Shown here: one piece after another, positions 4,104 to 37,469 of the stretch
Position numbering within the stretch: position 1 is the stretch's first letter
Layout: each line of letters begins with the position of its first letter
Assembly: GCF_054482595.1 (NCBI RefSeq)
Contig: NZ_CM137008.1
Length of the DNA: 64,000 nucleotides
Strand: one strand, 5' to 3'
Notes under the pieces: model-generated
What the model was told of the DNA's origin: nothing
The model's input: the letters and a program-made list of their open reading frames with translations, nothing else
The model's database searches: none
Made by a program: the position numbers and the translations under genes

Positions 4104-5093
4104 TTAGCCGCCAATGTACGATAAGTTTTGCGTAATACCGGTGTTGTTTTGATGCAGGAAATGGGTCTGTTTCTTCTCCCGCAGCGCCGCTGAAATACGC
4201 GCTTCCAGCACCTGTTGCTGGGTATCGTCTTCCAGCAGATCGCGCAGGTTAACGCCGCCTTCACCAAACAGGCAGAGATGGAGTTTACCAATGGAGGAAA
4301 CGCGCAGACGGTTGCAAGTGGCGCAGAAGTCTTTTTCATACGGCATGATAAGGCCAATCTCTCCGGCGTAATCCGGATGACAAAAGACTTGCGCGGGACC
4401 GTCGCTGCGTTGACGTAATTGGTGGATCCAGCCGCGACGCAGTAGCTCGTCACGCAGAACCTGACCAGAGATGTGATGCTTACGGAAGAGCTCGCTGCCC
4501 TCGCCCGTTTCCATCAGTTCGATGAAACGCAGCTGGATAGGGCGATGCTGGATCCAGTTCAGAAAGGTGTCGAGCTGGTGATGATTAACATCACGCATCA
4601 GCACGGTATTGACTTTGACCTTCTCAAAACCGGCCTCAAATGCAGCATCAATCCCTGCCATGACCTGGTTGAATTTATCCTGCCCGGTAATAGCGTGAAA
4701 CTGGCGGGCGTCCAGACTATCAACGCTGACGTTGATGCCAGTAAGTCCAGCATCGCGCCAGTTCGCCACATCGCGTTCCAGACGGTAACCATTGGTGGTG
4801 ACCGCTATCTGGCGAATAGCGTCGTTTTCTCGCACAGCGGCGATGATATCGGTAAAGTCGCGGCGTAAAGACGGCTCACCGCCTGTCAGGCGCACTTTTT
4901 CGGTGCCCAGACTGGCGAAGGCGCGCGTAACCCGGCGAATTTCATCGACGGTCAGAAAGCCTTTATTGGTGACGCCGCTCGGTTTGTAGCCATCCGGCAG
5001 GCAGTAGGTGCAACGAAAGTTACACACATCGGTAATCGACAGGCGCAAGTAGTAAAACTTACGCGCAAATGCATCAGTCAGTTGTGAAGCCAT
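4104..5093 (-). CDS. moaA: GTP 3',8-cyclase MoaA, radical SAM (329 aa)
   Basis: ORF trimmed to MASQLTDAF...; CNFRCTYC radical-SAM cysteine motif near N-terminus; 329 aa. Confidence 0.92.
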
Positions 5094-5240
5094 GTACACC
5101 TTTCCAGATACGGGAGGCGAAGTCATTTCTTCCTTCGCCCTGGTGGCAATCTTTACGAGCATTGTCACGGCCAAAGCACCATATCAGTTGACCCAGGTGC
5201 AGAGGCTAGAGTGTTTAGTGGTTAAGCCGATACTAGCGTG
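5094..5240 (-). ncRNA. moaA 5' leader, expected location of the Moco riboswitch
   Basis: Long untranslated leader upstream of moaA; the riboswitch is placed by established knowledge of the E. coli moaA leader, its conserved fold was not verified here. Confidence 0.35.
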
Positions 5241-8704: not shown

Positions 8705-9006
8705 CATCACCATAATATTTCTGTTACAGCGTAAACTCCGCTGTCAATCATGAGCAAAATTTACTCTGTGGCGAGATAAAACTCGGACCTTACCGGGTTA
8801 TCCCCAAAGCAACGGCTTTTTTAACATTTGTCAAGATGAGTGATGTCAGTTTTATGGCAAGAGATGCCTGTTCAGTGACTGCCATTGCAATTATCTAACC
8901 AGTTAAAAAATAAAAGATATTTCTTTGAGCCGTCTTTAACGCCAATTCGCGTGCAAGCCGCGTATTCTCTCGCTTGCCTCGTGTTTTCTAACTCTAATAC
9001 ACATGG

Positions 9007-34571: not shown

Positions 34572-34790
34572 TTAATCATCTGGGTAATTAAGCGGCATCC
34601 AGTGTGTAACCTTGCTTGCTCCTGAATCGATGAATGCCTTGGTTCTCTGCCAGTAAGAGCCCATACATGATAGTTTGAACACGTCACCAGTATCAGTAAG
34701 AGCTATAACCTCTTTAGACCACATCCCTTCTTTGCTTTCTGGTAGCCGGTGTTCAACATTGATCCATTGGTTTCCGTTATCATCCATCAC
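34572..34790 (-). CDS. DUF551-like phage protein (72 aa)
   Basis: WINVEHRLPESKEGMWSKEVIALTDTGDVF...THWMPLNYP resembles the DUF551 domain common in enterobacterial phages. Confidence 0.5.
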   Translation of the reverse strand: MMDDNGNQWINVEHRLPESKEGMWSKEVIALTDTGDVFKLSCMGSYWQRTKAFIDSGASKVTHWMPLNYPDD

Positions 34791-35226
34791 AACCTCGTCT
34801 AGTTGTTCGTCATAGATTCAGTGGCTGGCGGTGACGATTCCGCTTTTCGGGAGCTACCCTAGCCACTGTTTTATTCTATCCGATGTCTTTCCATCAGTCC
34901 GCCACCACAAAGAATCTTTTTTGCCATAAGGCAGGAGGTTCATCTTTCAGTGGCTGCCAGTGTTATTTCCCCACCTACTGGCTTGGGTTGTTTCGCTGTA
35001 CTGCCGTAACTGGTTGCCCAGAATAAATTCCGGTTTCATTATCAAGCCCACCCGTAGATAGGCTTTGTAATGAACCGGCTCTTATCTCAACGCAGCCCCT
35101 TACCGCGCGCCAGATGCTCAATATCAAGCATCAGCAATGAGATGTTTAATCTGGATTCACTCCAGAAGTGATCACCACCCTGTCTACAGAGCCAGATGTG
35201 AAGGATGATGAGTAAAATTATCGCTA

Positions 35227-35664: not shown

Positions 35665-36137
35665 ACCTCAATCTCTCTGACCGTTCCGCCTGCTTCTTTG
35701 AATTTTGCAATCAGGTTGTCAGCCTTATGCTCGAACTGACCATAACCAGCACCCGGCAACGAAGCCCAGATATTGCTGCAACGGTCGATTGCCTGACGGA
35801 TGTCACCGCGATCAATCATCGGTAAAGCGCCACGCTCTTTAATCTGTTGCAATGCCACAGCGTCCTGGCTTTTGGGAGAGAAGTCTTTCAGGCCAAGTTG
35901 CTTGCGGTAGGCATCCCACCAACGTGAAAGAAGCTGGTAACGTCCGGCGGCTGTTGATTTGAGCTTTGGGTTTAGCGTGACACGTTTGCGAGGGTGATCG
36001 GAGTAATCAGTGAATAGCTCTCCGCCAACAATGACGTCATAACCATGATTTCTGGTTTTCTGACGTCCGTTATCAGTTCCCTCCGACCACGCCAGCATAT
36101 CGAGGAACGCCTTACGTTGATTATTGATTTCCACCAT
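35661..36137 (-). CDS. R: Endolysin R, lambda-type lytic transglycosylase (158 aa)
   Basis: [51 protein letters not shown]... near-identical to lambda R as recalled. Confidence 0.93.
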
Positions 36138-36444
36138 CTTCTACTCCGGCTTTTTTAGCAGCGAAGCGTTTGATAAGCGAACCTATCGAGTCAGTACCGA
36201 TGTAGCCGATAAACACGCTCGTTATATAAGCGAGATTGCTACTTAGTCCGGCGAAGTCGAGAAGGTCACGAATGAACCAGGCGATAATGGCGCACATCGT
36301 TGCGTCGATTACTGTTTTTGTAAACGCACCGCCATTATATCTGCCGCGAAGGTACGCCATTGCAAACGCAAGGATTGCCCCGATGCCTTGTTCCTTTGCC
36401 GCGAGAATGGCGGCTAACAGGTCATGTTTTTCTGGCATCTTCAT
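36121..36444 (-). CDS. S: Holin S, lambda-type with dual start (107 aa)
   Basis: [64 protein letters not shown] matches lambda S105/S107. Confidence 0.93.
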
Positions 36445-36689
36445 GTCTTACCCCCAATAAGGGGATTTGCTCTATTTAATTAGGAATAAGGTCGATTACT
36501 GATAGAACAAATCCAGGCTACTGTGTTTAGTAATCAGATTTGTTCGTGACCGATATGCACGGGCAAAACGGCATGAGGTTGTTAGCGCAGCCTCTTGCCA
36601 CCCGCTTTCACGAAGGTCATGTGTAGAAGGCCGCAGCATAACTATCACTGATGAATTCAGGACAGCTAGTGGCTACGGCTCAGTTTGGG

Positions 36690-36761
36690 TTGTGGCGGCC
36701 GGAATCGAACCGGCTTCCATCGGTGCGCTGCCGATTGCAGTACGCGCGGCGGTCAGCTACA
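36690..36761 (-). ncRNA. tRNA-like remnant (intact T-arm and anticodon-arm-like hairpin; degenerate acceptor and D stems)
   Basis: minus strand GCCGG-TTCGATT-CCGGC T-arm; ATCGG-CAGCGCA-CCGAT hairpin; acceptor pairs 5 of 7; position 33 is A not U. Confidence 0.3.
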
Positions 36762-36980
36762 TGACTAGTATTTTCACTATCGCCTATCTGCTAGCTCGCC
36801 ATTGAGCTTCACCACAACGATAAGAGCACTGCGCGGCACCTTTCACCAATTCCGCGAGGTCTGCGGGTTCAATGCTCTTACCTGTTGTGCAAATAAAAAA
36901 GCCACCGTTGCAACTTAAGAGTCACTAACGGCAGCTTATGCGAATAGTGTTGCTCATTTGTTCAATGATGTCAACACGTT

Positions 36981-37469
36981 CTATGCTACATGTTTAATTT
37001 TCTCTACACGTTTCCGGTTTTTAAACGCACTATCCAGAACTGGGTAAATCATAAACAACGAAGCATTGAGGATTTCGTCAACTTCCCGGCGACAGGTTGC
37101 GAGCGATGGTTTTTGAATACGCCCGCCGCCCCGGCATAACATCTTGCGAGGTCTTGCGACACGATGATAGTAAGATGCAATGGCATGCTTGGAAGATCCA
37201 TGAGCGTAGTAGCTGAGGAGGATGCCAAAGGCTTTCTTGTCAATGCACATGACGGAATCGACGACCTGAGAAATCAACATTCCATCATCATCATTACACA
37301 TTGGCCTTGTCATAACTCTTCCCGGCTCTACGCTCTCCATGAACTTCGCTATTACGCTGCTCATGCGCTTTTCCAGGCGACCTGAATAAACCCATGCGCC
37401 CCACAGTTCAAGCCAGCCATTCAGCCACTCGTGCTGTTCTTTGGTGAGGTTTAGTTCTCTTATGCTCAT
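36981..37469 (-). CDS. Q: Late-gene antiterminator Q (162 aa, short Q21-like type)
   Basis: Position after ninH and upstream of the S holin with a 536-bp pR'/qut-type gap; Cys/His-containing translation. Confidence 0.6.
   Translation of the reverse strand: MSIRELNLTKEQHEWLNGWLELWGAWVYSGRLEKRMSSVIAKFMESVEPGRVMTRPMCNDDDGMLISQVVDSVMCIDKKAFGILLSYYAHGSSKHAIASYYHRVARPRKMLCRGGGRIQKPSLATCRREVDEILNASLFMIYPVLDSAFKNRKRVEKIKHVA

Follow-up and report, generated by a model that had tools for sequence, protein, structure and literature searches.

A conserved tRNA-shaped RNA element in the Q-S interval of a prophage and its relatives in enterobacterial phages

Results

A tRNA-shaped element lies between Q and S

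The 64,000-nt stretch of contig NZ_CM137008.1 (NCBI RefSeq assembly GCF_054482595.1) that we analyzed as a whole, hereafter the window, contains a prophage in which the minus strand between the late antiterminator gene Q and the holin gene S carries a tRNA-like element 3' of the terminator tR'. We find that this element is not the remnant of a tRNA but an intact gene that encodes a structured non-coding RNA of tRNA shape. In the direction of transcription, the interval and its flanking genes are laid out as follows (R1 is the covariance model of the element family).

36981..37469, minus strand: late antiterminator gene Q, 162 aa (Pfam PF06530 Phage_antitermQ, E 1e-24).
36891..36935, minus strand: intrinsic terminator of tR' type for the short pR' leader transcript, GCUGCCGUU...AACGGUGGC and then U6AUUU.
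36884..36889, minus strand: segment x, CACAAC, complementary to nucleotides 1-6 of the 5' acceptor strand.
36820..36881, minus strand: hairpin P0, a 12-bp stem GUAAGAGCAUUG/CAGUGCUCUUAU with a variable apical insert, found in minimum-energy folds.
36686..36818, minus strand: tRNA-like core, 133 nt including the 3' CCA (R1, 160.1 bits, E 4e-40; covariation).
36810..36818, minus strand: 5' strand of the acceptor-like helix P1, GUUGUGGUG, paired with 36689-36697.
36793..36808, minus strand: D arm, AGCUC-AAUGGC-GAGCU, its loop with GG as expected at positions 18-19.
36737..36791, minus strand: P3, an extra long arm of 55 nt between the D arm and the anticodon-like hairpin.
36764..36769, minus strand: self-complementary hexamer ACUAGU in the apical loop of P3.
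36719..36735, minus strand: anticodon-arm-like hairpin, AUCGG-CAGCGCA-CCGAU, whose loop reads NCG.
36698..36714, minus strand: T arm, GCCGG-UUCGAUU-CCGGC, with the loop UUCGAYU conserved in the family.
36689..36697, minus strand: 3' strand of P1, CGCCACAAC, followed by CCA at 36686-36688.
36445..36685, minus strand: remainder of the late leader, 240 nt, to the S start codon, near-invariant in the window, HK75, Sf6 and CUS-3.
36121..36444, minus strand: holin gene S, 107 aa, lambda-type (Pfam PF05106, E 2.4e-30).

An original prediction, made from the letters of the window alone, had described a degenerate tRNA-like stretch at this place. The T arm (GCCGG-TTCGATT-CCGGC, 36714-36698), the 5-bp hairpin with its 7-nt loop (ATCGG-CAGCGCA-CCGAT, 36735-36719) and A at 'position 33', and the 3' ACCC (36690-36687) that it reported are all present on the minus strand, which here reads AUCGG-CAGCGCA-CCGAU-GGAA-GCCGG-UUCGAUU-CCGGC-CGCCACA-ACCC. 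The acceptor stem, said to pair at 5 of 7 positions, in fact pairs at 9/9 with the true 5' strand at 36818-36810, and the D arm, said not to fold, is a good D arm at 36808-36793, outside the interval considered. Both misreadings arose because 79 contiguous bases, the 3' two-thirds of the unit, were taken as the element, whereas its true 5' parts lie 57 nt further upstream, past the extra arm. From 36818 to 36792 the minus strand reads GUUGUGGUG-AA-GCUC-AAUGGC-GAGC-UA. P1 pairs GUUGUGGUG with CGCCACAAC along its whole length, with one G-U, and corresponds to an acceptor-like stem of 7 bp plus 2. P3 consists of GCAG/CUGC, a conserved internal loop AUA/GCGCGUA, a helix of 8-9 bp and an apical loop of 20 nt. 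The resulting five-arm cloverleaf is the minimum-energy structure given by RNAfold, both for 36680-36825 and for a 204-nt composite that includes P0.

A tRNA body with an extra arm

ARAGORN reports 0 tRNA or transfer-messenger RNA (tmRNA) genes in the whole window and 0 on the native element, also with its intron or relaxed options. Removal of P3 and of one A in silico leads the same program, at default settings, to call tRNA-Arg(GCG), and it does so in two divergent copies as well as in that of the window; the molecule is thus a tRNA body with an extra arm between the D and anticodon arms. A 7-bp acceptor stem, a D arm with G18G19 and a T arm with a UUCRAnn loop are canonical. The anticodon arm does not come right after nucleotide 26 as in a tRNA, the 55-nt arm standing there instead. 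Across the family the anticodon-like loop reads Y-[A/U]-[G/U]-CGCA: position 33 is A in nearly all copies and U in one alone (L148), position 34 is G or U, and C35, G36 and C37 are invariant. P1 is usually 9 bp long, making a 14-bp stack with the T stem, and the tail that follows it is CCA in the window, ACCA or GCCA in most copies from N leaders (see below), and ACU, CAU or AGA elsewhere. The departures from tRNA rules, namely non-U33, C37 and the extra arm, are conserved traits and not decay.

Conservation and covariation of the family

A pattern scan of IMG/VR yielded at least 120 loci and 66 distinct copies, and the copies from a second scan, anchored independently on the D arm and T loop, were added to a model-based alignment of 63 distinct copies. 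In a MAFFT alignment of 49 distinct copies (A3), 94.1% of cells are paired as against 32-41% in slid controls, and compensatory changes occur in 16/37 pairs; none of 500 shuffles reaches the observed value on four of five measures, and 5/500 do so on the remaining one, 'further pair types'. The model-based alignment (A5) has 95.6% of cells paired versus 31-42% in slid controls, compensatory changes in 24/40 pairs and 0/500 shuffles reaching the observed value on all five measures; being fitted to the model it yields somewhat inflated pair counts, and the MAFFT alignment agrees with it. P1 is 97.7% paired with compensatory changes in 6/9 pairs (helix 1), the two helices of P3 show them in 11/13 pairs (helices 3 and 4), and the T arm, 99.7% paired, in 3/5 (helix 7). 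The D arm (helix 2) is 99.4% paired and near-invariant. The anticodon-like stem covaries as well, the scan anchored on D arm and T loop having returned AUCGG/CCGAU, AUCAG/CUGAU, AUAGG/CCUAU and AUUGG/CCAAU; its apparent invariance proved to be an artefact of the first search pattern. G-U cells outnumber A-C cells in the alignment by 84 to 23, which favours an RNA made from this strand.

Model R1 finds a single copy in the window, and the match is full-length (model positions 1-151) with all helices intact. Its 160 bits lie within the family range of 135-172, while true tRNAs score 24-28 bits, and the window copy is an ordinary, intact member of the family. A T-arm match by chance, which the original prediction had allowed for, does not account for a score with E ~4e-40. 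Tertiary pairing between GCGC of the hairpin loop and GCGCG of the internal loop found no support, as among copies from the independently anchored scan the hairpin loop often reads AUCGCA while the internal loop shows no change to match.

The hexamer in the apical loop of P3 is self-complementary in 63/63 distinct copies and occurs in seven versions (ACUAGU, UCUAGA, UCGCGA, GCUAGC, ACCGGU, UCCGGA and, through a G-U pair, UCUGGA). Three types of pair are represented at positions 1/6 and four at 3/4. Because adjacent bases cannot pair inside one hairpin loop, the simplest reading is pairing between the loops of two molecules. Such a self-complementary loop suggests that the RNA may form kissing-loop homodimers.

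A portable cassette in several genomic contexts

The conserved, covarying unit travels as a portable cassette in many enterobacterial phages. In the window and in HK75 it lies in the late leader, directly past tR'. Two copies, L084 and L077, stand in lambda-type N leaders together with lambda OL/pL, the boxA and boxB of nutL and the lambda N start, and in both the order after nutL is CAAAGCAGAAGGCUUUGGGGUGUGGUG, the element, CACCACACCACCAAAGCUAACUGACAGGAGAAUCCAGAUG and then the N start. The N-leader copies are enclosed by the helix GGCUUUGGGGUGUG/CACACACCACCAAAGC, which is that of the lambda N-leader hairpin as read directly from the lambda sequence. That hairpin is the site at which RNase III regulates the translation of N. 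Its interior was considered as a homologue of the element and rejected, as it gives no R1 match. Virulent Salmonella siphophages of the Skate/Akira type (Skate, Akira, gmqsjt-1, INT55) carry the element in RNA-only units on the strand opposite to the flanking tail genes; in Skate the unit has a promoter-like site, TTGACA-17-TAGATT, upstream and is followed by a true tRNA and a terminator-like hairpin. Further copies are found between portal and terminase genes, and between two terminators ahead of lysis genes.

Some annotations overlie these units. In Skate (L007, 2210-2724) small 'hypothetical protein' coding sequences on the opposite strand cover the promoter, P0 and the element and are probably spurious calls, and the same is probably true of a 'polyubiquitin-A' coding sequence called over the RNA gene in vB_EcoP-611R6.

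The Q-S interval itself is mosaic. The interior found in the window recurs in HK75 and in seven other phage records, while Sf6 and many Salmonella phages have tRNA-Asn and tRNA-Thr between the same flanks and phage 21 has tRNA-Asn and tRNA-Thr(UGU) in this slot, in keeping with the original description of the interval as a place for tRNA genes. The 3' end of the tRNA-Thr aligns with that of the tRNA-like element. In a sensitive BLAST search with the element alone, unrelated siphophages of virulent lifestyle show it as a separate block of ~143 nt, with identities of 92-95% in Akira, Skate, INT55 and seszw, 81% in ST1UNAM and gmqsjt-1, and 79% in Pantoea phage PdC23. The hosts of the phage records that carry it are Salmonella, Escherichia and Pantoea. 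Among complete E. coli genomes, 174/5426 (~3%) have the element, never annotated as RNA, and a scan of species-representative genomes gave only 3 matches, which include Klebsiella pneumoniae and an Enterobacteriaceae genome. A wide taxonomic spread was rejected, since the one match outside Enterobacterales is a coliphage contig that was probably mis-binned. This contig, L130 (JAUVQU010000080.1), from a Cellvibrionaceae metagenome-assembled genome bin, has a Q-S region of the E. coli lambdoid type, and its core matches the commonest E. coli-type copy. The idea of a duplicated 3' end of host ssrA or of a host tRNA at an attachment site was likewise set aside, as the element does not lie at the prophage end but between Q and S, and recurs inside many phages.

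The cassette boundary and the upstream hairpin

In the late-leader, RNA-only, portal-terminase and two-terminator contexts the core is preceded by P0, whose stem is 12/12 paired in six sequence versions, including GAGAGAGUAUUU/AAGUACUCUCUU, GGUAAUGGCACU/AGUGCCAUUACC and GUAAAUCAAUUU/GAGUUGGUUUAU. In most copies segment x is found 5' of P0. It repeats part of the 3' acceptor strand in direct orientation, and it becomes CACAAU in copy L054, the acceptor of which begins AUUGUG. In the window the fold in which x pairs with the acceptor strand (x:x') is 3.4 kcal/mol less stable than the acceptor-stem fold, and in 8 other copies the gap is at most ~4 kcal/mol. An analogous upstream hairpin occurs in the N-leader copies and in lambda itself. 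In the lambda N leader (L133, 590-625, minus strand) a small hairpin, CAAAGC-AGAAG-GCUUUG, competes with the long N-leader helix for that helix's 5' strand, the same upstream-competitor layout as segment x of the tRNA-like cassette.

CUS-3 (L003, ~727-925) and LPSTLL (L163, 778-846) retain P0 and both P1 strands around interiors that are unrelated to the element, of ~190 nt in CUS-3 and of 68 AT-rich nt in LPSTLL. As a candidate homologue the CUS-3 insert was rejected, for it has no R1 match and folds no better than shuffles (z -0.99). In L159 (8695-8781) a short tRNA-like of 71 nt with a 3' ACCA, called 'tRNA-Ser tga' by ARAGORN, occupies the same extended closing helix, and a full element follows 130 nt downstream of it. 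Because CUS-3, LPSTLL and L159 exchange the interior within a retained scaffold, P1 acts as a cassette boundary. Between the short tRNA-like of L159 and the full element, at 8830-8850, GGAGGAGTTATGTAA forms a Shine-Dalgarno sequence followed by a start-stop mini-open reading frame, which is also present in L037, L064 and L115.

Genes and signals around the element

The placement between Q and S given in the original prediction is borne out by the PF06530 and PF05106 open reading frames on either side; RusA lies upstream of the Q-S region and Rz (PF03245) downstream. The tR' of the window has the same sequence as the annotated 'terminator tR'' of Sf6 and HK75, and its hairpin appears in the fold prediction. 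A simple promoter and terminator scanner flagged nothing in the Q-S interval of the window, tR' included, and tR' is therefore assigned through its identity to the annotated features of Sf6 and HK75. Since the element lies downstream of tR', a pR' transcript would include it, as proposed, if Q-modified. The stretch at 36445-36685 is the 'bsq3 boundary sequence' of the CUS-3 annotation; it is outside the tRNA-like family and is kept in Sf6, HK75 and CUS-3 irrespective of the cargo upstream. The whole late leader folds with a z-score of -5.8 against shuffles.

Discussion

The element family is best grouped with the tRNA mimics, and a function for it can be proposed. Neither Rfam 15, ARAGORN, RefSeq annotation nor the searchable literature provides a name for it.

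Comparison with known RNAs

The tRNAs of the lambdoid Q-S slot (tRNA-Asn with tRNA-Thr, or tRNA-Leu, in phage 21, Sf6 and L) are the nearest neighbours by position: they lie past tR' in the same place and orientation with aligned 3' ends, their expression is presumably Q-dependent, and they are alternative cargo between the same flanks. They are canonical, 75-76 nt long and called by ARAGORN, whereas the element is 133 nt long, has an extra arm, non-U33 and C37, and is not called. The tRNA-Thr(UGU) that phage 21 carries in this slot confers protection from P2 OLD, a nuclease which cleaves the anticodon stems of tRNAs where CNG motifs are paired (PMC12445682), and phage tRNAs in general are tied to escape from tRNA-targeting defences (PMC10264068, PMC11555353).

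At gathering scores Rfam 15 has no match at the element. In a relaxed search the sole match is tmRNA (RF00023), through a 'mini' tRNA-like domain, with 20.2 bits against a cut-off of 47 (11.4 bits for L084). The T arm and the 3' acceptor strand align with tmRNA, and in both a long helix replaces or adjoins the anticodon arm. Unlike tmRNA, the element has a true D stem, ~130 nt instead of ~360 and no G3-U70; numbering the seven pairs next to the T stem as those of the acceptor makes pair 3-70 of the window copy U-A. The covarying structure requires no pseudoknot, the tmRNA mode of ARAGORN returns no tmRNA, and no tag reading frame was recognised, none having been searched for beyond that run.

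T4 species 1 RNA (rnaC, 139 nt), a stable RNA of the T4 tRNA cluster, is also a phage RNA of ~140 nt with a T arm and an acceptor-like closing stem. We rejected homology, as R1 with filters off gives it 14.2 bits versus 9.5-13.5 bits for four ordinary T4 tRNAs. YrlA Y RNAs are tRNA mimics bound by Rsr/Ro60, with D- and T-arm mimicry, and some serve as substrates for RNase P as well as for the CCA-adding enzyme; they are circularly permuted, the T arm standing before the D arm, end in the Ro-binding stem and are encoded beside rsr (PMC4201824). The element is not a YrlA RNA, as its D arm precedes its T arm, it ends at the acceptor stem, no rsr accompanies it and Rfam reported no YrlA match. As to the lambda N-leader hairpin, the relatives L084 and L077 share its closing helix and its place between nutL and the N start codon; the interior is unrelated, and the window copy sits in the late leader instead. 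ROOL, GOLLD and the manA motif are phage-borne structured RNAs that form multimers by cryo-EM (10.1101/2024.12.08.627333; 10.64898/2026.07.01.735769). Their sequences and folds are unrelated to the element, ROOL and GOLLD are much larger, and a dimer of the element is proposed from its loop only. The Hfq-type prophage small RNAs PasA and PasC, encoded near the holin gene, have a 3' intrinsic terminator hairpin with a poly-U tail (10.64898/2026.05.13.724894). Judged by that description alone the element stands apart from them, ending in an acceptor-like stem without a U tract.

A proposed function and its alternatives

What might such an RNA do? We propose that it is a stable tRNA mimic which is excised from phage transcripts and acts in trans, most likely against tRNA-attacking nucleases, a proposal by analogy that we consider about equally likely to prove right or wrong. 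In this prophage, the element would be transcribed late, once Q allows RNA polymerase past tR'. The conserved D-loop GG and T loop would give the RNA a tRNA-like L shape, and cleavage by RNase P at the 5' side of P1 together with 3' trimming would release a stable RNA of ~130 nt, or RNase III might do so where the closing helix is extended, as in the N leaders. The product would then work in trans by mimicking a tRNA, probably in the form of a kissing-loop homodimer, and could counter host or rival-phage nucleases on tRNAs by serving as decoy for, or inhibiting, some tRNA-binding factor. The stand-alone units on the strand opposite to tail genes argue that the product is the RNA itself; an anti-defence kind of function is suggested by the slot shared with real tRNAs, among them one that counters a nuclease, and a decoy or inhibitor is preferred to a replacement decoder because the conserved non-U33 and C37 argue against decoding. 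The fullest form of the proposal, a class of tRNA-Arg-shaped RNAs in enterobacterial phages, lambda-like ones with their N and late leaders included, that are excised by tRNA-processing enzymes, dimerize by kissing loops and serve as decoys disarming a tRNA-directed immune nuclease or another tRNA-binding host factor, is speculative and rather unlikely to hold in all its parts.

Several points weigh against this proposal. All the copies in lambdoid phages lie in operon leaders, which fits a role in cis equally well. Maturation to a tRNA-like end is uncertain because the 3' CCA is not conserved. The anti-defence role is drawn only from position. The window copy has CNG sites, namely C-A-G/C-U-G immediately past nucleotide 26 and, within the hairpin, CGG/CCG; many relatives lack them, and as they are absent from GGG/CCC-type relatives no specific nuclease can be named. 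The folding z-score of the core alone is modest (-1.57), and the structural case accordingly rests on comparative evidence and not on energy, with the reservation already made about pair counts in the model-fitted alignment. We also found no paper that names the RNA.

The principal competing explanation is that the element is a leader module acting in cis, the fold of which recruits RNase P or RNase III, splits the antitermination RNA from the message and so sets the translation or stability of S or N, while the RNA cut out would have no function of its own; we regard it as a doubtful but serious possibility. The upstream part released by such a cut would be qut/tR' here and nutL in the N leaders, the lambdoid copies all being in leaders of antiterminated operons. 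The N-leader copies sit within the helix of the lambda N-leader hairpin, and with segment x able to pair with the 5' acceptor strand at small cost in energy a folding switch is possible. Against such a module, the Skate/Akira-type units are RNA-only, with just a tRNA and a terminator downstream and hence no mRNA to regulate; a processing signal would not require an invariant internal loop, an NCG loop or a self-complementary hexamer, and in CUS-3 and LPSTLL P0 and the P1 strands are retained but the core is missing. A role in translation in aminoacylated form, be it as an adaptor that resembles tRNA-Arg with its body expanded or as a minimal tmRNA-like rescuer, appears improbable. Positions 35 and 36 are identity elements for ArgRS in E. 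coli, and C35 and G36 are invariant here with G or U at 34; ACCA or GCCA follows P1 in most N-leader copies, the short tRNA-like of L159 has ACCA within the same scaffold, and tmRNA is the best Rfam match. Yet almost all decoding tRNAs have U33 and a purine at 37, while the family has non-U33 nearly throughout, invariant C37 and no A20; CCA and discriminator are unconserved outside the N-leader class, the acceptor and T stems stack to 14 bp and not 12, and neither G3-U70, pseudoknots, an ARAGORN tmRNA call nor a tmRNA score near the cut-off (20 vs 47) speaks for a rescuer.

Two further explanations deny that the RNA matters. The element could be a feature of the DNA, such as a 'boundary' or cassette for recombination within the mosaic, an attachment site that resembles a tRNA, or an inserted mobile element with palindromes and repeats that act in DNA: CACAAC direct repeats flank the unit, the cassette swaps of CUS-3 and LPSTLL break exactly at the P1 strands, the flanks are labelled boundary sequences in CUS-3, and the hexamers are DNA palindromes too. 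We hold this to be highly improbable, for compensatory changes preserve helices and not sequence, the excess of G-U over A-C (84 vs 23) is strand-specific, the T-loop and D-loop consensus is kept, no integrase or transposase travels along, and the hexamer, unlike a protein-binding site, varies in sequence yet stays self-complementary. A reading of the element as a tRNA gene in decay, or as a fragment that recombination left behind, is almost certainly wrong. In favour of decay, no tRNA finder calls the element, and the slot holds intact tRNAs in relatives; against it, the match to the family is full-length at 160 bits, every variable helix covaries, the supposed defects are conserved, and the element recurs in the 174 complete E. 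coli genomes and in unrelated phage types. Of the original prediction, the tRNA likeness stands and the decay does not, the element being full-length, conserved and covarying.

Phage tRNAs have recently been tied to the evasion of tRNA-cleaving defences, and one of them is the tRNA-Thr that phage 21 carries in this very slot. If the trans-acting mimic that we propose exists, a tRNA look-alike that does not decode would extend this arms race from replacement tRNAs to RNA decoys, and a small, tractable and probably dimeric RNA would join the short list of natural tRNA mimics. The element is found in ~3% of the complete genomes of E. coli, and laboratory phages, HK75 among them, carry it too, so that the proposal can be tested directly with existing strains.

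Other RNA motifs in the window

Elsewhere in the window, a Molybdenum cofactor riboswitch at 5081-5225 on the minus strand (104.5 bits) marks chromosomal DNA beside the prophage. An int-alpA RNA motif at 34807-34869, also on the minus strand (42 bits against a gathering score of 35.8), stands directly 5' of a DUF551 open reading frame (34572-34790) and just 3' of Rz, an unusual site between the lysis cassette and the next phage genes.

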